From Paracoccaceae bacterium (GTDB lineage: Bacteria; Pseudomonadota; Alphaproteobacteria; Rhodobacterales; Rhodobacteraceae), in assembly GCA_027484915.1 (NCBI GenBank), contig JAIXSA010000018.1:7059-71058 (forward strand): a stretch of DNA of 64,000 bases. Reading direction: 5' to 3'. Shown one piece after another: positions 1,973 to 47,246 of this stretch; the first letter of the stretch is position 1; each line of letters begins with the position of its first letter. The notes beneath the pieces were generated by a model, which had not been told where the DNA came from, made no database searches, and saw nothing but the letters and a program-made list of their open reading frames with translations. A program made the position numbers and the translations under genes.

Positions 1973-3679
1973 TCAGGCCTTGATCAGGCCCATCTGTTCC
2001 AGCTTCAGCAGGACCTGGTGGGCGCAGTGGTCGACGTCCACGTTTTCGGTGTCGACGACCAGCTCGGCATGGGTCGGAGCCTCGTAGGGGTCGGAGATCC
2101 CGGTGAACTCCTTGATCTTGCCTTCGCGCGCCAGCTTGTAGAGACCCTTGCGGTCGCGGCGTTCGCATTCCTCGATGCTGGTCGCGACGTGGACTTCGAC
2201 GAATGCGCCGAAGGCTTCGACCATCTCGCGCACGGCGCGGCGGGTCGCGGTGTAGGGTGCGATGGGCGCGCAGATCGCGATGCCGCCGTTCTTGGTGATC
2301 TCGCTGGCCACATAGCCGATCCGCTTGATGTTCAGGTCGCGGTGTTCCTTCGAGAACCCCAGTTCCGAGGACAGGTGCTTGCGGACCACGTCACCGTCCA
2401 GCAGCGTGACGGGACGCCCGCCCATCTCCATCAGCTTGACCATCAGCGCGTTGGCGATGGTGGATTTGCCGCTGCCGGACAGGCCGGTGAAGAAGACGGT
2501 GAAGCCCTGTCTCGACCGCGCGGGGCTGGTCTTGCGCAACTCGTTGACCACCTCGGGGAAGGAGAACCACTCCGGGATGTCCAGCCCTTCGCGGAGGCGG
2601 CGGCGCAGTTCGGTGCCGGAAATGTCGAGGACGGTAGAGCCTTCGGGGATCTCGTTCGCGGGGTAGTACTGGGCCTTTTCCTGCACGTAGACCATGTGCT
2701 TGAAGTCGACCATTTCGATGCCGATTTCCTTGGCGTGCTGGGCGAAAAGCTCCTGCGCGGCGTAGGGGTCGTAGAAGTCCTTGCCGGCGCTGTTCTTGCC
2801 CGGACCGGCGTGGTCGCGTCCGACGATCATGTGGGTGCAGCCGTGGTTCTTGCGGATGATGCCGTGCCAGACAGCCTCACGCGGGCCGGCCATGCGCATG
2901 GCGAGGTTGAGGAGGCTGAGGGCTGTGGTCTGGGCCGGATACTTGTCCAGCACAGCCTCATAGCAGCGGACGCGGGTGAAGTGGTCGACGTCGCCGGGTT
3001 TGGTCATGCCGACGACGGGATGGATCAGCAGGTTCGCCTCGGCCTCACGCGCGGCGCGGAAGGTCAGTTCCTGGTGCGCGCGGTGGAGCGGGTTGCGGGT
3101 CTGGAAGGCCACGACCTTGCGCCAGCCGAGCTTGCGGAAGAGGGCGCGGAGTTCGTTCGGCGTGTCGCGGCGGGCCTTGAAGTCATAGTGCACCGGCTGC
3201 TGGATGCCGGTGATCGGGCCGCCGAGGTAGGCCTTGCCGGCGGTGTTGTGCAGGTAGTTCACGGACGGATGGGCAAGGTCGTCGGCGCCGAAGACCTTTT
3301 CAGCCTCGACCGCCTTGTTCGGGACCCACTTGTCGGAGATCGACAGGATGGCGAGGATCACGCCTTCCTGGTCGCGGAGTGCTATGTCCTGGCCGGGTTC
3401 GACCTTGTCGGCGAAAGCTTCCGAGACGTCCAGCGTGATCGGGATCGGGAAGAGCGTGCCGTCGGCGGTGCGCATGTTGACGACGACGCCGTCGTAATCG
3501 GCCTGGCCCATGAACCCTTTCAGCGGCGCGAAGCCGCCGTTCATCAGAAGTTCAAGGTCACAGATCTGGCGCGGCGTGAGGTCCCAGGACGGCAATTGCC
3601 CGGCCTCGACCTTCAGCTTCTGGGCCGAGTCGTAGGAGACATAAAGCTCGGAGATCGGGGCGTGGTTTTGCAGGTACAT
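1973..3679 (-). CDS. sat: Bifunctional sulfate adenylyltransferase/adenylylsulfate kinase
   Basis: FQTRNPLHRAH, VGRDHAG, then APS kinase FFTGLSGSGKST, LLDGD, DPYE; start taken at 3679. Confidence 0.96.
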   Translation of the reverse strand: MYLQNHAPISELYVSYDSAQKLKVEAGQLPSWDLTPRQICDLELLMNGGFAPLKGFMGQADYDGVVVNMRTADGTLFPIPITLDVSEAFADKVEPGQDIALRDQEGVILAILSISDKWVPNKAVEAEKVFGADDLAHPSVNYLHNTAGKAYLGGPITGIQQPVHYDFKARRDTPNELRALFRKLGWRKVVAFQTRNPLHRAHQELTFRAAREAEANLLIHPVVGMTKPGDVDHFTRVRCYEAVLDKYPAQTTALSLLNLAMRMAGPREAVWHGIIRKNHGCTHMIVGRDHAGPGKNSAGKDFYDPYAAQELFAQHAKEIGIEMVDFKHMVYVQEKAQYYPANEIPEGSTVLDISGTELRRRLREGLDIPEWFSFPEVVNELRKTSPARSRQGFTVFFTGLSGSGKSTIANALMVKLMEMGGRPVTLLDGDVVRKHLSSELGFSKEHRDLNIKRIGYVASEITKNGGIAICAPIAPYTATRRAVREMVEAFGAFVEVHVATSIEECERRDRKGLYKLAREGKIKEFTGISDPYEAPTHAELVVDTENVDVDHCAHQVLLKLEQMGLIKA

Positions 3680-27845: not shown

Positions 27846-27871
27846 AACAGCGCCCGGCGGTGGATGGTTCC
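27846..27871 (-). promoter_or_regulatory. EcfG-type promoter of the ku-ligD operon
   Basis: Minus strand GGAAC-N17-TGTT. Confidence 0.72.
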
Positions 27872-27984: not shown

Positions 27985-28458
27985 ATGTCCGACGACGTGC
28001 TGAGCCACATCCCCGCACTGCGGCTGTTCGCGAGGTCCTTGACCGGGCGCTACGGCGATGCGGATGATCTGGTGCAGGATACCCTGGTGCGCGCCATCGC
28101 CAGCGCACAGTCCTACACTCCGGGAACCAACATGCGCGCCTGGCTGTTCACGATCATGCGCAACCGCTTCTACAACGACCGGGTCAAGCTGGCCCGCGAA
28201 CGCCCCGGCGCCGAGGACTGCATTTCGTCCGTGCCGACGAGCCCGGAAACCCAATACTGGCATGTTCGGGGGCGCGAGATCGAGGCCGCGCTGATGGGCC
28301 TGCCGCAGGCCTACCGCGAGGCGGTGATGCTCGTCCTTGTCACGGGCGAAAGCTACCAGTCGGCCGCCGAAATCCTTGGCTGCGACATCGGCACGATCAA
28401 GAGCCGGATCAACCGTGGCCGCAAGCTTCTGCAGACAGCGCTGGGCGAAGAGGTCTGA
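27985..28458 (+). CDS. ECF sigma factor, EcfG/SigT (ECF15-like) general stress type
   Basis: LRLFARSLTG..DADDLVQDT, PGTNMRAWLFTIMRN, LP..YREA, SY..AAEI.GC.IGTIKSRINR. Confidence 0.88.
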   Translation: MSDDVLSHIPALRLFARSLTGRYGDADDLVQDTLVRAIASAQSYTPGTNMRAWLFTIMRNRFYNDRVKLARERPGAEDCISSVPTSPETQYWHVRGREIEAALMGLPQAYREAVMLVLVTGESYQSAAEILGCDIGTIKSRINRGRKLLQTALGEEV

Positions 28459-28491: not shown

Positions 28492-28533
28492 GATGGTCGG
28501 GACCACGACACACCACAATGCTAGGAGAGCGAC

Positions 28534-30297: not shown

Positions 30298-30322
30298 GGA
30301 ACAATCGGATGCCTTGGCTGTT
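30298..30322 (+). promoter_or_regulatory. EcfG-type promoter
   Basis: GGAAC-N16-TGTT(GA). Confidence 0.7.
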
Positions 30323-30802: not shown

Positions 30803-31075
30803 TTAGTCGCTGGCGATGCGGACGAGCTTCTTCAGGACCTGAAATTCGTCGGCGCGGGCGAGTTCAAGCTCGATCCCCTCGCCCGGAACGGCGCCGGGGT
30901 CCTCTTGTCCGTCCTGATAGATGGCGCGTTCGTCCAGCCAGTCCAGCATCTCGTCGCGGCGGGGCTGGGGCAGGTTGCGCATCAGTTCGACCAGCAGGCG
31001 GCGGTGTGTGAGAAGGCGGCCCTCCAGCGGGAGGGAGAACGGCGGGACGGGTTTGCGAGGCTTGTAGTCCGACAT
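30803..31075 (-). CDS. Hypothetical 90-aa protein
   Basis: LEGRLLTHRRLL...WL.ER..YQDGQEDPGAVP...ELARADEF; GGAG RBS and EcfG-type promoter. Confidence 0.72.
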   Translation of the reverse strand: MSDYKPRKPVPPFSLPLEGRLLTHRRLLVELMRNLPQPRRDEMLDWLDERAIYQDGQEDPGAVPGEGIELELARADEFQVLKKLVRIASD

Positions 31076-31096: not shown

Positions 31097-31123
31097 GGAA
31101 CGCGCCTTGCGGGAAAAGGTTCC
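31097..31123. promoter_or_regulatory. Bidirectional overlapping EcfG-type promoter
   Basis: GGAAC-N17-GTTCC: plus strand GGAAC-N16-GGTT towards mpg, minus strand GGAAC-N16-CGTT towards the 90-aa gene. Confidence 0.7.
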
Positions 31124-31194
31124 CGACCGGGGAAGAATTTCTTCAACGGGGCCGCAGGCTGGCGCAGGGCCGGTCGCTGACGCAGTGTGGGTAC

Positions 31195-31740
31195 ATGCCG
31201 ATCCGCTTTGATCAGGACATTGTCGATCTGGCCCGCAGCTTGCCGGGTGCCCGACTTATGGTGCGCGGCGTCGGCGGCACCGTGGTCGAGACCGAGGCCT
31301 ATGGCCGGGACGATCCGGCGTCGCACAGTTACCGCGGGCCGACGGCGCGCAATGCGGCGATGTTCGGAGAGCCGGGCACGGTCTACGTCTACTTGTCCTA
31401 CGGCTGCCATCTGTGCCTGAACGTCGTCGGTCGACCGGGCGAGGCGGTGCTGATCCGGGCCCTGCTGCCAGAGGTCGGGATCGCAGAGATGATCGCCCGG
31501 CGCGGGACGGCGCGCGACATCGCCACGGGTCCGGGCAGGTTGGGTCAGGCTTTGGGTATTGCGCTGTCCGACAGTGGAAAACGCTTTGACGGCGGCGCCT
31601 TCCTGCTGGAGCCCGGACCGCAGGCGGATCTCCTGGTCGGGCCGCGCATCGGGATCACCAAGGCCGCGGACCGGCCCTGGCGCTTTGGCCTCGCCGGCGC
31701 GTCTGCGCTGAGCCGGCCCTTTCCGCGCCCGCCGGAGTAG
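31195..31740 (+). CDS. mpg: DNA-3-methyladenine glycosylase (AAG/MPG family)
   Basis: VETEAY...DPASHS, MFGEPG.VYVY.SYG.H.CLNVV, VLIRAL, GPGRL.QALGI, GPRIGITKA. Confidence 0.93.
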   Translation: MPIRFDQDIVDLARSLPGARLMVRGVGGTVVETEAYGRDDPASHSYRGPTARNAAMFGEPGTVYVYLSYGCHLCLNVVGRPGEAVLIRALLPEVGIAEMIARRGTARDIATGPGRLGQALGIALSDSGKRFDGGAFLLEPGPQADLLVGPRIGITKAADRPWRFGLAGASALSRPFPRPPE

Positions 31741-31749
31741 GACCGAGGG

Positions 31750-31824
31750 TCAGCGCAGTCCGAAGAAGGACAGGATCGCCACGACGACGACGATCAGGCC
31801 GACGAGGTAGATGATGTTGTTCAT
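31750..31824 (-). CDS. 24-aa single-TM microprotein (below the ORF-track cutoff)
   Basis: Manual translation MNNIIYLVGLIVVVVAILSFFGLR*; AAAGG RBS-like site and EcfG-type promoter. Confidence 0.75.
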   Translation of the reverse strand: MNNIIYLVGLIVVVVAILSFFGLR

Positions 31825-31857
31825 GGCGGTGCCTTTCACGGGTTCTGTTGCCGGACC

Positions 31858-31883
31858 AACGGGCGGAGGGGCGCTTCAGTTCC
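31858..31883 (-). promoter_or_regulatory. EcfG-type promoter of the 24-aa microprotein
   Basis: Minus strand GGAAC-N17-CGTT. Confidence 0.75.
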
Positions 31884-32537: not shown

Positions 32538-32583
32538 CGTACCCTCCTTCCCGCGCAAAACCGTGGGGGGCGACATTGTTCCG

Positions 32584-32608
32584 GGAACAACGCGCGGCCG
32601 GACCGGTT
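32584..32608 (+). promoter_or_regulatory. EcfG-type promoter
   Basis: GGAAC-N16-GGTT upstream of the PRC-barrel gene. Confidence 0.72.
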
Positions 32609-32658: not shown

Positions 32659-32955
32659 ATGGACCACGCCACGCATACGCGGCTAACGCCCGCCGAGCTG
32701 ACCGAATCGAACCTGGTCGGGGCCACGATCTATGGCGCCGATGACGAAAAGGTCGGCACGATCTCGCACCTGCATCACGACGGCTCCACCGCTCAGGCGG
32801 TGGTCGATGTCGGGAGCTTCCTGGGCATCGGCGCCAAGCCCGTGCTGGTTAGCCTGGGCGAGCTGAACATGATGCGCGACCATACCGGCTCGATCCACGG
32901 GATGACCTCGTGGACCAAGGAGCAGCTGAAGAACTTCCCCGAACACCGGCACTGA
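32659..32955 (+). CDS. PRC-barrel domain protein
   Basis: L.GATIYGADDEKVGTI, VVDVGSFLGIGAKPV, WTKEQLK..PEH; AAGGAG RBS. Confidence 0.9.
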   Translation: MDHATHTRLTPAELTESNLVGATIYGADDEKVGTISHLHHDGSTAQAVVDVGSFLGIGAKPVLVSLGELNMMRDHTGSIHGMTSWTKEQLKNFPEHRH

Positions 32956-33011
32956 CCGATGTAAAGAAGCTGGAAGTCCCGGGTCGTCGGCCCGAGACTT
33001 TTGCTGTTTCG

Positions 33012-33036
33012 GGAACCGGTTGCCCCGCCGCGCGTT
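33012..33036 (+). promoter_or_regulatory. EcfG-type promoter
   Basis: GGAAC-N16-CGTT. Confidence 0.75.
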
Positions 33037-33081
33037 TTCCGTGGCCTGTTGTCACGACCGCGGCACGAAAGGGAGACTGCC

Positions 33082-33270
33082 ATGCCAAACCTGCACTTCG
33101 GCCGCCCCGAGAGCCCCGATCTGCCCCCTGCCGAACCCGATCTGCCCGTTCCGGGAGATCCGGTTCAGCCGGATGTCTATCCGGATCCCATGCCCGACCC
33201 CCAGCCGATCCCGCCCCAGGACCCGCAGCAGACCCCGCCGGGCGAGATCACGCCCCCGATACATGGGTGA
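33082..33270 (+). CDS. 62-aa Pro/Asp/Gln-rich protein
   Basis: MPNLHFGRPESPDLPPAEPDLPVPGDP...; GGGAGA RBS and perfect promoter. Confidence 0.6.
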   Translation: MPNLHFGRPESPDLPPAEPDLPVPGDPVQPDVYPDPMPDPQPIPPQDPQQTPPGEITPPIHG

Positions 33271-33294
33271 CGGCGACCGTGATGCGATGTCGTG

Positions 33295-33465
33295 TCAGTC
33301 CTTGGCGGCGGTCTTGCGCGCGCCCGTCAGGGTGCGGTCCAGTTCCTGGGCAAGCTGGATGATGACATCGGGCACGGGTTCGGCCTTCGCATCCTCAAAC
33401 AGCCGGGCGGCCGCCGCGGACAGCGTCTTGTCCTTCTTGGACTCGGGTCCTGAATCCTGCGGCAT
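33295..33465 (-). CDS. nepR: NepR-like anti-sigma factor (56 aa)
   Basis: RLFEDAKAEPVPDVIIQLAQEL matches the NepR core (LY..v..EPVPDRF..LL..L); CAGGAA RBS. Confidence 0.65.
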   Translation of the reverse strand: MPQDSGPESKKDKTLSAAAARLFEDAKAEPVPDVIIQLAQELDRTLTGARKTAAKD

Positions 33466-33816
33466 TTCCTGTCTCCGACTGTCCCTGGTGCAGTGTATCG
33501 CAGGGCGGCGGCCAACACGACGACCAAATTTGGTCATTTCCGTGAAAGCGCGGCCCCAGAAGTTGTGTCCTGCCAACCTGCGCATTAAAGGTAGGGCGGT
33601 GCGGGAGTGCTTCCAGAGCGGAATCGCGTGGCGGCGGAAATGCGGCGGCCAGGGCGTGGTGACGGCGAAATCTGCAGGGCACTGGCCAATCGGCTGAGTT
33701 TCCGCAACACTTGTGCTGCGTATTCACCAGTACATTGACCGTTCGCGATGGGCACGTCTGCCCAAGGCCCTTGGGCCGACAGCAGGCATGTCGCTACCCA
33801 TTCAAGGAGACGGACC

Positions 33817-34392
33817 ATGCGACACAATCTGAATGGCAAGCGTGTGCTGGTCGTCGAGGACAACTACCTGCTGGCCCTGGACCTGGTGGACGAGCTTGAG
33901 GCGGCGAATGCCGTGGTGGTGGGGCCCTGCAACACGCTGAGCGATGCAAGCCTGCAAGTGGCGCACAGCGATCTGGCGGTGCTGGACGTGAACCTGAGCG
34001 GCGAGACGACGTTTCCGCTGGCTGACCGTCTGCAGGCGCTGGACGTGCCCTATGTCTTCTTCACGGGCTATGAAAAGGACGTGTTGCCGGTGCGCTTTGC
34101 CGGGGTCGACTGCATCACCAAGCCGCAGTCGCCCGCCATTGTCGTCGAGCTTTTGGACCTGCGCTCGCGCGAGGTGGGCAGCGACAGCATCCTGGAGCTA
34201 ATCCCGATTTTGCGCGCGCGTGCCCGTGGTTTTCTGGGTGATCCGCAGGCGGCGGACCGGCTTGTCGAACTTGCGCTGCAATGCGCGATCGACGATCCGG
34301 GGCCGATGCCCTCGGGCGCGCGGGTGGCCCCCTGGCTGATCCGTCTGATGGACGAGATCATGGCAGCGGGTCCAGGACACCTGCTGAACTAG
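33817..34392 (+). CDS. Response regulator: FATGUY-type receiver fused to C-terminal ECF sigma2-like domain
   Basis: VLVVEDN, AVLDVNL (D57), FFTGY, TKP; residues 123-178 align ungapped to region 2 of the 27985 sigma factor (20/56 identities, counted by hand). Confidence 0.85.
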   Translation: MRHNLNGKRVLVVEDNYLLALDLVDELEAANAVVVGPCNTLSDASLQVAHSDLAVLDVNLSGETTFPLADRLQALDVPYVFFTGYEKDVLPVRFAGVDCITKPQSPAIVVELLDLRSREVGSDSILELIPILRARARGFLGDPQAADRLVELALQCAIDDPGPMPSGARVAPWLIRLMDEIMAAGPGHLLN

Positions 34393-34404
34393 CCGGGGTT
34401 TCGG

Positions 34405-34431
34405 GGAACAAAGCCCCCGGCCGCCGGTTCC
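34405..34431. promoter_or_regulatory. Bidirectional overlapping EcfG-type promoter
   Basis: GGAAC-N17-GTTCC: plus strand GGAAC-N16-GGTT, minus strand GGAAC-N16-TGTT. Confidence 0.68.
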
Positions 34432-34515
34432 TTTCCCACTGACGACATCTGGCCACGCGCGGGCCGCCCCACAGCGGTCTGCCGGCCTTTGCGCATTGAG
34501 AGAAAGGACGACCCA

Positions 34516-35115
34516 ATGAAACATCTATTTCTTGCCGTGCCCGCTGTGGCGCTGTTCGCCGCCGGGGCCTTTGCCCAGACCGATACCACCACTGGGGCGA
34601 CCACCGGCACCGACGCCGGTGCTACCGTGGATGCCACCGTTGACACCACGACGGGCGCCACCACCGGCACCAGCGCGGATGGGTCCGTGACCTTTGGGAC
34701 CAACTGGCCCTTGTCGGTCGGCACCACCTTCTTCATGGACGCCGACAGCGGCACGCTGCGCACCTCGGACGAGATCGGCAGCGGATGGCAGTCCCTGAGC
34801 CAGGAAGACCGCGACATGATCAAGGCGGACTGCCTGACCTTCATGGCGGCGCATGGTGATGCAGCGCCCACGACGGGGGCCGATGCTTCGACCGGGACCT
34901 CGACCGACACGACGGCCGGGGCGTCGACTGACGCTGGCGCTGCGACCGACACGGCGACCACCGGGACTGCGACGGATACCACGGCCGATGCCGCGACCAG
35001 CACCGATACGGCGACCGGAACCGGCACCGCATCGACCGAGGGAACCATCGCGACGGCCGTGGGTTATGACATGACCGAGATGAAGGCTATCTGCGAAGCA
35101 GTTCAGGGCCTCTGA
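34516..35115 (+). CDS. Secreted Thr/Ala/Asp/Gly-rich protein
   Basis: Signal peptide MKHLFLAVPAVALFAAGAFA; two T-rich tracts flank a folded core with two Cys; GAAAGGA RBS. Confidence 0.8.
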   Translation: MKHLFLAVPAVALFAAGAFAQTDTTTGATTGTDAGATVDATVDTTTGATTGTSADGSVTFGTNWPLSVGTTFFMDADSGTLRTSDEIGSGWQSLSQEDRDMIKADCLTFMAAHGDAAPTTGADASTGTSTDTTAGASTDAGAATDTATTGTATDTTADAATSTDTATGTGTASTEGTIATAVGYDMTEMKAICEAVQGL

Positions 35116-35197
35116 TCACGGTCCCTTTGCCGCCGGCAGACCTCAGCCGGCGGCCCTGACGAACCGGCGGGCGGACGTCCCTCCCTTCCTGCCGGCG

Positions 35198-35241
35198 CCG
35201 GTGGTTGCAAGCGCGATGCTTGTGGCCACCGGTTTCTTTTT
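35198..35241 (+). terminator. Intrinsic terminator
   Basis: CCGGTGGTTGCAAGC-GCGAT-GCTTGTGGCCACCGG then TTTCTTTTT. Confidence 0.75.
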
Positions 35242-35309
35242 GCCCCCAGGACAGGCGCGGAAGCAGGCCGAGCGGCCTGGAATGGAGGCGCAGCCAGCCG
35301 CGCAATTCT

Positions 35310-35335
35310 GGAACATTCGGGCGTGCGCGCCGGTT
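35310..35335 (+). promoter_or_regulatory. EcfG-type promoter
   Basis: GGAAC-N17-GGTT(GA). Confidence 0.75.
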
Positions 35336-35406
35336 GATCCTTTGTCCGTGAAGGACAGCCCGGCCACGACGGGCGTGTTCCGAAGGCGCAGCAACTGGAG
35401 AGAACA

Positions 35407-40218: not shown

Positions 40219-41898
40219 TCAGGTCGCGGGTGGGGCGATCACCGCAGCGGCCGGGGCGGCCAGGCGGCAGATCAGGCCGAGCGGATGATGGGTGATCTCG
40301 ACCGTGCCGCCAGTCTGCGCCGACAGGGCGTGCCTGATGACCTTGGAGCCGAATCCGGTGCGGTCCGGTTTCGTCACTGGCGGCCCGCCCCGTTCGGTCC
40401 ACAGCAGGGTAAAGACCTCACCCTTCTCGCCGGGCTCCAGGCCCCATTCGATCAGAATGGTCCCGCTCTCGGTGCTGAGCGCGCCGTATTTCACCGCGTT
40501 GGTGGAAAGCTCGTGGATAGACATGCCGATGGCAGTGGCGACATTGCCCTTGACCACAAGGTCCGGCCCCTTCGTCTCGACCCGCCCCTTGTCTTCGCCG
40601 ATGAAGGTTGCGACGCCGTTGGCGATCAGTTCGCGTAGGGGGGTGCTTGTCCACCCTGACTGCTTGAGCAGCCGGTTCGCCTCGCTGATGGCGTTCAGCC
40701 GGTCCGAGAAGACCCGCAAAGCCGCGTCGTTTCCGCCGTTGGCAAAGGTCTGCCGGGCGACGGCCTGGATCGTCGCCAGCAGGTTCTTTTCGCGGTGCTC
40801 CAGCTCATCCCGCATCAGGTCGCGCGCCTCGTCCGCCTTCTGGCGCGCCTCGCGGTTTGTCAGGACTTCGGTCAGGAAGGCATCAAGCGCCGCCCCGGCA
40901 TCGCCGATCTCGCCATTCTCCTCGCTCATCCCGGTGCGGGCCGTGGTCTTGCCGTTGCGCCAGGCGGTGATCGTGTCGATCAGGACCCCGACCGGACGCG
41001 CGATGAAGACGCGGGCGGTGTAGAAGGCCAGGAGCGACGCCAGCGCGGTGCCCAGCAGCGCGAGGCCCAGGCCCTGCAGCGCGACGGTGCGCATCGTCTC
41101 AAGCCCGGCGGAAATCGAGTAGCCGGCGCTGATGTAAAGCCCCGAGGCATTTGCGGCGGGCGGAAAATACCCCAGGATCCGACGGGTTCCGTCCTGGCTG
41201 AGCACCTCCATCGAGCCTGGGCGCGCCTCTTCAAGGTAGGACATGAATTCAGGCCGGATACTGGTTCCGACGAAGGTTTGCGGATCGGGAACCCGTGCCA
41301 GGATGATTCCGCCGCGGTCGACGATGGTCAGCGAATTCCCAGGCGCAAGCGAGCGGCGCTGCAGACGCTGCTCCATCCATTTCAGGTCCAGGTGGGCCAC
41401 CGCTGTACCCGGCGTCCCATTGCCATCCTCGCCAATTTGCAAGACCAGCGGCAGGCGCGGGGCGCCGTTGGCGGTTCGGTGGAACGTGCCTGGCAGTGGC
41501 TTGCCCGAAGTCGCCTGTGCGATCAGCTCGGCCGGGGCCAGGTCCAGGCTGGCCGGAGGAACCGAACTGCAGCGGATGCTGCCGTCCGGGTTCAGGATGT
41601 AAAGCTGGGCGATGAAGTCAACCGCCTTGACCGCATCGGCCAGCAGACCAGAGCAGGCGCTGTCCCCCGTGCGCACGACCGGGGCCGCAGCCAGGGTGCG
41701 CAGGACGCTTTCCAGGCCTGCGAAGGTCTGCTCGACTTCGAGCGAGACCAGTTCTGCGGTCCGCAGGGCATCGCTGTGCAGGTCGGCGGTCCGGTCGCGC
41801 TGAATGGTGATGATGTTGGAGATGGCGATTGCCACCGCGGGCAGGAGGGCCACGGCCGTTACCGCGAACAGGCGTGAAGACAGCGACTTAAGCCGCAC
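40219..41898 (-). CDS. Membrane HWE-family sensor histidine kinase with Cache-like periplasmic domain
   Basis: Two TM helices; ELEHREKNLL (HRxxN), HELSTNAVKYGALS, WTERGGP, GFGS; GTG start at 41898 after GGGAGG. Confidence 0.9.
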   Translation of the reverse strand: MRLKSLSSRLFAVTAVALLPAVAIAISNIITIQRDRTADLHSDALRTAELVSLEVEQTFAGLESVLRTLAAAPVVRTGDSACSGLLADAVKAVDFIAQLYILNPDGSIRCSSVPPASLDLAPAELIAQATSGKPLPGTFHRTANGAPRLPLVLQIGEDGNGTPGTAVAHLDLKWMEQRLQRRSLAPGNSLTIVDRGGIILARVPDPQTFVGTSIRPEFMSYLEEARPGSMEVLSQDGTRRILGYFPPAANASGLYISAGYSISAGLETMRTVALQGLGLALLGTALASLLAFYTARVFIARPVGVLIDTITAWRNGKTTARTGMSEENGEIGDAGAALDAFLTEVLTNREARQKADEARDLMRDELEHREKNLLATIQAVARQTFANGGNDAALRVFSDRLNAISEANRLLKQSGWTSTPLRELIANGVATFIGEDKGRVETKGPDLVVKGNVATAIGMSIHELSTNAVKYGALSTESGTILIEWGLEPGEKGEVFTLLWTERGGPPVTKPDRTGFGSKVIRHALSAQTGGTVEITHHPLGLICRLAAPAAAVIAPPAT

Positions 41899-42182
41899 CC
41901 GACGCCCTCCCCCTTTCGGATATTCCCGTCGGCATCTTCGCAAGTTTCTTGGACCGCACAAGCTAAACTTGGCCATGTGTGGCTTCAATTCGGACAACTG
42001 CCGATTGATCATGAAAGTGCCGTAGCGGCAGCGCGTTTCAAGATTGATGCAAACTTGTGCACTCCGCCCACTTTGGCGTCAGATGCGCGGCTTTGCCCGG
42101 TCCGGCAGGCGGGTGATGCCGGATCGTGAAAGACCCGGACGCGTCAAACCCGTAGCTCTGGGGCAAGCCACGGAAGCCGCGC

Positions 42183-45539: not shown

Positions 45540-47246
45540 ATGCCCGCCCTGATCAGCCGCCAGACCTACGCCAGCATGTATGGCCCCACCACCGGCGACC
45601 GGTTGCGACTGGGCGATACCGAGCTGATCGTCGAGGTGGAACGGGACCTCACAACCTACGGCGAGGAGGTGAAGTTCGGCGGCGGCAAGGTGATCCGCGA
45701 CGGGATGGGGCAGTCCCAGGTTCCACGCTCACGCGGCGCGATGGATACGGTGATCACCAACGCGCTGATCATCGACCATACCGGCATCTACAAGGCCGAC
45801 GTGGGCCTGCGCGACGGGCGGATCGCGGCCATCGGCAAGGCGGGGAACCCGGATACGCAACCGGGGGTGACGATCATCATTGGACCGGGGACCGAGATCA
45901 TCGCAGGCGAGGGGCGCATCCTGACGGCTGGCGGCATGGACGCGCATATCCATTTCATCTGCCCCCAGCAGGTGGAGGACGCGCTTCATTCCGGCATCAC
46001 CACGATGCTCGGCGGCGGGACCGGCCCCGCGCATGGTACCCTCGCCACCACCTGCACCCCCGGCCCCTGGCATCTGGGCCGGATGATCCAGGCGGCGGAC
46101 AGCCTTACGATGAACCTGGCGTTTGCCGGGAAGGGCAATGCCTCGCTGCCCGAGGGGATCGTGGAACAGGTCCGGGGCGGCGCGGCGGCGCTGAAGCTGC
46201 ATGAGGATTGGGGGACCACTCCGGGAGCCATCGACTGCTGCCTGGGCGTCGCCGACGAGATGGATGTGCAGGTGATGATCCACACCGACACGCTGAATGA
46301 ATCGGGCTTCGTCGAGAATACGCTGGCCGCCTTCAAGGGCCGCACGATCCATGCCTTCCACACCGAAGGCGCGGGCGGGGGTCATGCGCCGGACATCATG
46401 AAGGTGGTGGGCTGGCAGAACGTGCTGCCCTCCTCCACCAACCCGACGATGCCCTACACGGTAAACACCGTCGAAGAGCATCTCGACATGCTGATGGTCT
46501 GCCACCACCTCGACAAGCGCATCCCCGAGGACGTCGCTTTCGCCGAAAGCCGCATCCGGCGCGAGACGATCGCGGCCGAGGACGTGCTGCATGACATGGG
46601 TGCGTTCTCGGTCATCTCATCGGACAGCCAGGCGATGGGTCGGGTCGGCGAGGTGATTACCCGCACCTGGCAGACCGCGCACAAGATGAAGGTCCAGCGC
46701 GGGCGGCTGGCCGAGGAGCAGGGCCAGAACGACAACCTGCGCGTCCGCCGCTACATTGCCAAGTACACGATCAACCCGGCCATCGTGCACGGGATCAGCC
46801 AGCACATCGGCAGCGTCGAGGTCGGCAAGCGCGCCGACCTTGTCCTGTGGAACCCCGCCTTCTTCGGGGCCAAGCCCGAGATGGTGCTGATCGGCGGCAT
46901 GATCACCGTCGCGCAGATGGGGGACCCGAACGGCTCCATCCCCGTGCAGCCGATGTACTCCCGGCCGATGTTCGGGGCGCTGGGGCGGGCGGTGGAGCGC
47001 TCGGCGGTGGTGTTTGTCAGCAAGGCCGCGCAGGAGGATGACCTGCGGGGCCGCCTCGGCATCGCCAAGGACACGCTGGCCGTCGAGAACACCCGGAACA
47101 TCGCCAAGCGCGACATGATCCACAACAGCGCGACGCCAAAGGTCGAGATCCACCCGGAGACCTACGAAGTGCGCGCCGATGGCGAGGTCATCACCTGCGC
47201 ACCTGCCAAAGAGCTGCCCCTCGCGCAGCGCTATTTCCTGTTCTGA
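45540..47246 (+). CDS. ureC: Urease alpha subunit
   Basis: [52 protein letters not shown]. Confidence 0.98.

Follow-up and report, generated by a model that had tools for sequence, protein, structure and literature searches.

In the canonical PhyR-NepR-EcfG system, autoregulation operates through an EcfG motif that lies directly upstream of nepR-ecfG, and often of phyR, as for example in Sphingopyxis granuli (PMC7083833). TGTT, GGTT, and CATT -10 boxes support EcfG transcription in vitro in S. granuli, on templates that span only the -35 box to the transcription start site (TSS; PMC7083833). Staron et al. (2009), as cited in bioRxiv 10.1101/641647, drew attention to the near-palindromic form of the EcfG motif and put forward two-way firing as a hypothesis. 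In Erythrobacter litoralis DSM 8509, GGAAC-N17-GTTCC is located between nepR-ecfG and the kinase gene gsrP (Fiebig et al., 2019; 10.1101/641647). RNA-seq reads start there 13–14 bp past each end of the motif, and both orientations fire, one more strongly than the other (10.1101/641647). In symmetric sigma70 bidirectional promoters, divergent transcription arises from the inherent symmetry of the elements (Warman et al., 10.1101/2020.01.31.928960), and at symmetric E. coli promoters polymerase binds in one orientation to the exclusion of the other (PMC12825309).

The locus compared here with these systems is part of a window, the whole stretch of 64,000 nucleotides that was analyzed, which derives from a freshwater Tabrizicola-like member of the Paracoccaceae. 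Its best genome matches are Tabrizicola MAGs, and its DNA is present in aquatic metagenomes. The region between 20 and 40 kb is a general stress island with 18 GGAAC-N16/17-GTT sites (2.6 expected), most of them correctly placed upstream of genes. DUF892, PRC-barrel, and DUF481 genes are found in the island by Pfam, together with genes whose products we take, from inspection of the translations by eye, to be two Ku proteins, LigD, and a large KatE-type catalase. The features needed for the comparison are as follows.

27985-28458: EcfG-type ECF sigma gene, with PhyR_sigma2 (E 1.8e-15), Sigma70_r2, and r4_2 domains
33295..33465, minus strand: nepR-like gene for a 56-aa product that contains an EPVPD core, oriented divergently to the REC gene, assigned by profile and Pfam matches
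33817..34392, plus strand: gene of a REC-sigma2-like regulator of 191 aa, assigned by Pfam, PDB profile matches, and an AlphaFold model
34405..34431: palindromic core of an EcfG-type promoter, readable on both strands, identified from the sequence and from orthologous sites
34405-34409 and 34427-34431: the half-sites GGAAC and GTTCC of the palindrome, 17 nt apart
34516..35115, plus strand: target gene for a secreted Thr/Ala/Gly-rich protein with a signal peptide, supported by translation, conserved synteny, and RNA contigs at 34450-34754
40219-42078: HWE histidine kinase gene, by domain match

REC-sigma2 is a fair name for the regulator, as far as profiles and a predicted structure indicate. 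The Pfam scores are slightly below threshold (Response_reg 26.5 bits, PhyR_sigma2 24.6 bits), and the family profile matches SdrG, Sma0114-type, and PhyR receivers. The receiver is PhyR/SdrG-like and contains an FFTGY ('FAT GUY') motif. The C-terminal 65 residues match ECF sigma region 2 (5uxx, E 3e-4) and the PhyR sigma-like domain (2lfw, E 0.025), and the AlphaFold model (pLDDT 84) consists of REC and three helices; a fold search with this model was dominated by receiver matches and was uninformative on the C-terminal domain. For the nepR family profile, the best PDB match is Caulobacter NepR 3t0y_B over the EPVPD core (E 0.15), and three of ten nepR orthologues touch Pfam NepR weakly. An earlier reading of the DNA made from the sequence without database searches (hereafter the sequence-only reading) had named these neighbors as REC plus sigma2-like and NepR-like, and the profile matches support it, with Pfam scores under threshold for the former and an E of 0.15 for the latter.

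About 100 full-length homologues make up the REC-sigma2 family, mostly from Paracoccaceae and some from Mesorhizobium and Aquibium. The protein is a domain-permuted PhyR relative that lacks sigma4, having an N-terminal receiver and a C-terminal sigma2-like three-helix domain, and its gene is always divergently paired with a nepR-like gene. No canonical phyR is present in the window, and REC-sigma2 could be an alternative anti-anti-sigma. The gene order PRC, Pro-rich 62-aa gene, nepR, REC-sigma2, secreted protein is found in 15 related loci (12 lineages).

The sequence GGAACAAAGCCCCCGGCCGCCGGTTCC at 34405-34431, read directly, is GGAAC-N17-GTTCC, a 27-base palindrome. It begins 13 nt beyond the REC-sigma2 stop codon (TAG, 34390-34392), and the ATG of the plus strand gene at 34516 lies 87 nt downstream of it. 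Both the placement of the motif 13 nt past the stop and its two-strand reading, GGAAC-N16-GGTT on the plus strand and GGAAC-N16-TGTT on the minus strand, had been given by the sequence-only reading and are correct. The window contains two exact palindromes of this form, at 34405 and 31097, as against 0.04 expected from shuffles, and in DNA runs of the same population no variation is seen at the motif. The interpretation preferred here, held with a probability of roughly two in three, is that the element is the EcfG promoter of the 34516 gene, that the palindrome is a by-product of the EcfG consensus, and that any antisense transcription is not a conserved circuit.

The position of the element directly after a stop codon also allows a reading at the RNA level. 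An inverted repeat around the -35 box (34391-34428) is predicted immediately behind the REC-sigma2 stop, and CCGGG-N7-CCCGG-like repeats occur in several relatives; it might serve mainly as an RNA hairpin that terminates or stabilizes the REC-sigma2 mRNA. This is very improbable, as the folding energy does not improve on that of shuffles (z -0.22), on either strand, the consensus fold of ten lineages keeps 4 pairs with a single compensatory one, and a U tract is absent. An intrinsic terminator at 34391-34428 is rejected as the main function on the same values (z -0.22, no U tract, 4 consensus pairs). An Rfam search of 33200-35400 at E <=1 returned nothing except a chance isrG fragment.

The preferred interpretation, a promoter for the 34516 gene, starts from the plus strand.

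34405..34429, plus strand: -35 GGAAC at 34405-34409, a 16-nt spacer, and -10 GGTT at 34426-34429, supported by conservation and by RNA of a relative

Orthologous sites were compared in the 15 related loci of 12 lineages, in which the REC protein is 58–79% identical to that of the window. In every one of the 14 related loci that still have the downstream gene, GGAAC, the AA that follows it, and GGTT are unchanged; the spacer of these sites has diverged, and its 3' half is essentially randomized. L181, the sole lineage without the downstream gene, is also without the motif. The plus strand carries -35 GGAAC and a -10 of the type (C/G/T)GTT at a spacing of 16–17 nt, the site is upstream of a gene with its cores conserved while the spacer drifts, and an EcfG-type sigma gene is present (27985-28458). 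GGTT is the commonest -10 box among the sites of the window, ahead of CGTT. The EcfG-type identity assigned to the element by the sequence-only reading is supported.

RNA evidence comes from the freshwater metatranscriptome X23, in the form of assembled unstranded contigs of a relative 90–97% identical to the window. Contigs begin 6–33 nt past five plus strand EcfG motifs, at 28509, 31129, 32630, 33069, and 34450, and a sixth (31693-31837) is compatible with a minus-strand motif at 31883. The contig for the 34516 gene, starting at 34450, begins 19 nt beyond the palindrome, an offset compatible with the 13–14 bp offset seen by RNA-seq in E. litoralis. From the conserved plus-strand cores and this contig start, the plus reading is probably the working promoter of the secreted-protein gene, and the claim that it drives the gene at 34516 is supported (14 of 14 loci; RNA contig of the relative). 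Its dependence on EcfG is inferred from motif and context. RNA polymerase with the EcfG-type sigma (gene 27985-28458) would bind -35 GGAAC (34405) and -10 GGTT (34426) and initiate transcription rightwards at a predicted TSS of ~34438-34445. The secreted protein (34516..35115) matched no Pfam family.

A further element is found at the end of the same gene. Within its last 75 nt, the EcfG motif GGAACcatcgcgacggccgtgGGTT (in the element 35041-35243) is conserved in all lineages, and this conservation extends to the GGA and GGT glycine codons. Such codons are expected to be rare in a genome of 67% GC. The 3'UTR that follows is conserved and structured (46 consensus pairs, 9 of them compensatory), with a nearly invariant core GUCCCUC(C/U) that in most of 8 lineages reads GGAYGUCCCUCC, and it ends in a strong terminator (35197-35233). 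The element 35041-35243 has no Rfam match and is a candidate for a small RNA of the 3'UTR type under EcfG control, comparable to MicL or GsrN.

The opposite orientation of the palindrome gives a second, mirror reading.

34407..34431, minus strand: -35 GGAAC at 34431-34427 and -10 TGTT at 34410-34407; not conserved

The -10 box of this reading is the complement of 34407-34410, and a putative antisense TSS at ~34392-34400 is plausible for this strain. The window has a GGAAC-N16-TGTT site correctly placed upstream of the gene at 30298. The claim of a usable minus-strand promoter is biochemically plausible, since TGTT works in vitro (PMC7083833) and a two-way site is described in E. litoralis (10.1101/641647). 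Conservation was assessed from the two bases that follow GGTT in the orthologous sites.

CC: window, L168, L162, the L170/L173/L002/L176 clade, and L186 (5 lineages)
CT: L001 and L179 (2 lineages)
CA: L165 (1 lineage)
CG: L183, L187, and L188 (3 lineages)
TG: L082 (1 lineage)

The first G of the minus-strand -35 box, i.e., the outer C at C34431, is thus found in 5 of 12 lineages. These are five of the seven lineages at >=70% protein identity and none of the five below. Where the outer C is missing, the minus-strand -35 box becomes AGAAC, TGAAC, CGAAC, or CAAAC. In contrast, the first G of a true GGAAC is kept in 33 of 33 orthologues, namely 12/12 for the PRC promoter, 10/10 for the Pro-rich promoter, and 11/11 for the promoter at 34405. 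The sequence-only reading had made its case dependent on conservation of the GTTCC half in relatives, and this half is not conserved.

The inner C (GTTC) is more constant, being found in 13 of 14 loci. It need not mean a reverse promoter, because it is part of a pyrimidine-rich stretch, TTCCTTTCCCA, which runs from the -10 box to the likely start and is conserved in the closer lineages. A local position weight matrix gives the minus orientation -1.7 and the plus orientation 14.7; the matrix, built from 10 sites, is noisy and gives a poor score to one orientation of the 31097 palindrome as well, and its result is taken as weak support. No X23 contig covers 33361-34449, i.e., the REC gene and most of nepR, in a data set that is unstranded, belongs to a relative, and misses rare RNAs; among the RNA runs searched for 33470-34400, none contains the region. 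Missing contigs are weak negative evidence, an absent contig not being equal to an absent RNA.

A rival reading is a truly bidirectional EcfG promoter in the subclade. Its reverse orientation would produce EcfG-dependent antisense RNA over the 3' part of REC-sigma2 that does not reach nepR, would lower the putative anti-anti-sigma through antisense pairing or interference with its transcription, and would compete with the plus orientation for polymerase. The minus-strand -35 and -10 cores are perfect, the E. litoralis precedent has the same GGAAC-N17-GTTCC ends, TGTT is a working -10 box in vitro, CC is kept in 5/7 of the closest lineages and GTTC in 13/14 loci, and mutually exclusive polymerase binding is described for symmetric promoters of E. 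coli (PMC12825309). However, the outer C is missing in two close lineages (L001, L165) and in all five distant ones, palindromes are not enriched (see below), the RNA contigs leave the REC gene uncovered, and the sequences flanking the minus reading match the local consensus less well. This reading is considered unlikely. The retention of CC in the closest subclade and of the inner C may reflect a weak NGAAC -35 or a young lineage-specific function. Under the preferred interpretation, the minus strand probably fires to some degree in this strain. Polymerase may also bind in reverse and generate some antisense RNA from ~34392-34400, which would be non-selected and probably short-lived; judged from the aligned sites, the minus reading is not a conserved, selected feature.

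The symmetry itself has a simple source in the consensus sequence of EcfG promoters. Its two cores, AAC in the -35 box and GTT in the -10 box, are reverse complements with symmetric spacing, and every GGAAC-N17-GTT promoter already holds NNAAC-N17-GTT on the opposite strand. Owing to this complementarity, any such promoter becomes a perfect palindrome once CC follows. In 0.8 Mb of alphaproteobacterial related loci, with 163 strand instances of GGAAC-N17-GTT, CC follows in 22 of the 163, corresponding to 11 palindromic elements among ~152, or ~7%, and the background frequency of CC after GTT is 12.9% of all cases. The 163 EcfG-like instances hence show no palindrome enrichment (~7–13% against 12.9%), and two palindromes among ~17 promoters of the window are the chance expectation. 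The excess over chance is a property of the EcfG promoter, not of symmetry.

Palindromes also appear and vanish between lineages at other promoters, as seen in the aligned sequences of the 36076 promoter, where the orthologues of L001 and L082 read GGTTCA like the window and L002 alone has GGTTCC. At 34405, the CC after GTT would have arisen by happenstance in this strain and some close relatives. About 1 in 10 EcfG promoters can be expected to be perfectly palindromic by chance. A striking motif is in this way explained by the built-in near-symmetry of the EcfG consensus, which calls for caution in the annotation of antisense promoters in Alphaproteobacteria.

The sequence-only reading had gone further and proposed an excludon. 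Excludons of Listeria monocytogenes are long antisense RNAs that are also the mRNA of a neighboring divergent operon. Here, a minus-strand transcript would extend over ~935 nt, lying antisense to the REC gene and crossing the intergenic region before it continues as nepR mRNA, so that one promoter would provide negative feedback. Several of the underlying observations hold. The distance from the palindrome to the nepR ATG (33465), given as ~940 nt, measures ~935 nt. No U-tailed terminator is found on the minus strand in 32900-35300, in agreement with the earlier statement that none lies in between. The absence of a consensus EcfG promoter upstream of nepR holds even with one mismatch allowed, since neither strand of the stretch from nepR to the REC gene (33440-33830) has an EcfG-like motif at <=1 mismatch. 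The last two observations, together with the divergent gene layout that suits the geometry, would be in favor of the excludon.

The upstream region of nepR contains a different conserved element.

33497..33560, minus strand: conserved nepR upstream block, 30–95 nt upstream of the nepR ATG, from alignments of 8–11 lineages

The block, which is common to eight lineages, holds a perfect inverted repeat, GACCAAATTTGGTC (33522-33535), the motif CGNGAAAG(C/T)G (CGTGAAAGCG in the window), and a GATA box. It is a candidate non-EcfG promoter or operator of nepR by its conservation. Sigma70, sigma54, RpoH, and degenerate EcfG promoters were tried on it by eye, with no consistent fit across lineages.

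Untranslated C-rich, G-poor RNA is a typical substrate of Rho termination. Stretches of this composition are found in the antisense RNA (C/G 1.6–1.95 at ~33960-33880 and 33680-33600), and an untranslated antisense RNA of ~935 nt would be expected to be stopped by Rho. The nepR/REC module is retained in lineages that lack the palindrome. Because the palindrome half is not conserved (outer C in 5/12 lineages) and nepR has its own upstream block, the dedicated antisense loop to nepR is unsupported; with no RNA detected over the region in the X23 contigs and the RNA runs searched, and with the Rho-type stretches expected to act against read-through, the full excludon is highly improbable in spite of the missing terminator and EcfG motif. 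The antisense RNA is accordingly not part of the preferred interpretation as a conserved circuit that would silence REC-sigma2 or supply nepR mRNA.

A narrower version would confine the circuit to this strain and its four sister lineages, in which EcfG would fire leftwards and give stress-induced antisense RNA over REC-sigma2, possibly reading to nepR, as negative feedback on the partner-switch that arose recently from two point changes. We regard this as improbable. If it were true, one symmetric ECF promoter would serve two purposes, expression of a regulon member and negative feedback on the partner-switch. More generally, if reverse firing is real, spurious or new antisense RNA against a regulator of the same pathway would be raw material for evolving feedback; the data analyzed show no sign that it has been selected.

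The regulatory genes themselves seem to be without consensus autoregulation. No exact EcfG motif (GGAAC-N15-17-NGTT) precedes ecfG, nepR, or REC-sigma2, and for the nepR-REC region the same holds with one mismatch. The ecfG-like gene (27985-28458) has no adjacent nepR, and the sole motif in the intergenic region before it, at 27871 (minus strand, TGTT), faces the Ku gene.

On its other side, nepR (stop 33295-33297) is convergent with the 62-aa proline-rich gene (33082-33270), which is driven by an EcfG promoter at 33012. The contig of the relative at 33069-33360 overlaps the coding region of nepR by 66 nt; should it be a plus-strand transcript, EcfG activity would yield RNA antisense to the 3' end of nepR. 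Two EcfG promoters at 32559-32608 face away from each other, their -35 boxes adjoining as GTTCC-G-GGAAC (32578-32588), and drive the PRC-barrel gene on the plus strand and a small minus-strand gene; this layout also occurs in relatives, e.g., L168 at 261/264. Elsewhere in the window, the only Rfam match at gathering level is 5_ureB_sRNA (45693-45980, minus strand, 101 bits), adjoining urease genes.

The second exact palindrome of the window lies in a divergent intergenic region.

31097-31123: second palindrome, in a 119-bp divergent intergenic region, GGAAC-N16-CGTT leftwards and GGAAC-N16-GGTT rightwards

It is flanked by a gene for a 90-aa protein (30803-31075, minus strand) and a methylpurine-DNA glycosylase gene (31195-31740). 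Tabrizicola MAG L185 (1431-1457), the only relative available for comparison, has it as a perfect palindrome with a different spacer, and the contig of the RNA relative starts at 31129, 6 nt past its right end. It is probably a genuine shared bidirectional EcfG promoter.

Homologues of the 90-aa protein, 51–55% identical, come from Tabrizicola soli, T. aquatica, and another MAG (L003, L005, and L006, around 3060-3305), where their genes directly follow REC-sigma2 paralogues in convergent orientation. This arrangement suggests that the 90-aa protein and REC-sigma2 are functionally linked. The surrounding locus is on the whole more interesting than the palindrome at 34405, with its permuted PhyR-like regulator paired with nepR, the 31097 promoter, and the candidate 3'UTR small RNA.

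Compared with known systems, the locus shares with canonical PhyR-NepR-EcfG regulation the sigma family, the promoter consensus, a NepR-like anti-sigma, and an HWE kinase. It differs in that ecfG is 5 kb from nepR and that nepR is paired with a REC plus sigma2-only protein instead of PhyR. The likeness to an excludon lies in the divergent genes and in a proposed transcript antisense to one and sense for the other, but relatives do not keep the promoter half that such a transcript needs, and a separate element lies upstream of nepR. In symmetric sigma70 promoters it is the two -10 hexamers that overlap. In the present element, which belongs to an ECF-type sigma, each box serves as -35 in one direction and as -10 in the other, and the two readings share the entire promoter.

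The known system closest to the 34405 element is the E. litoralis site, with which it has in common the GGAAC-N17-GTTCC ends, the sigma family, and the location in a GSR regulatory locus. The palindrome is equally perfect, but it does not have a gene to express on each side, and relatives do not keep both halves. Unlike in E. litoralis, where a gene lies on each side, the minus side at 34405 looks onto the 3' end and stop codon of the REC gene, which points the same way as the target gene; a reverse transcript would be antisense to it. Within the window, it is the palindrome at 31097-31123 that truly corresponds to the E. litoralis site. Two-way firing of GGAAC-N17-GTTCC is already published, and the 34405 element is an EcfG promoter of that palindromic subtype.
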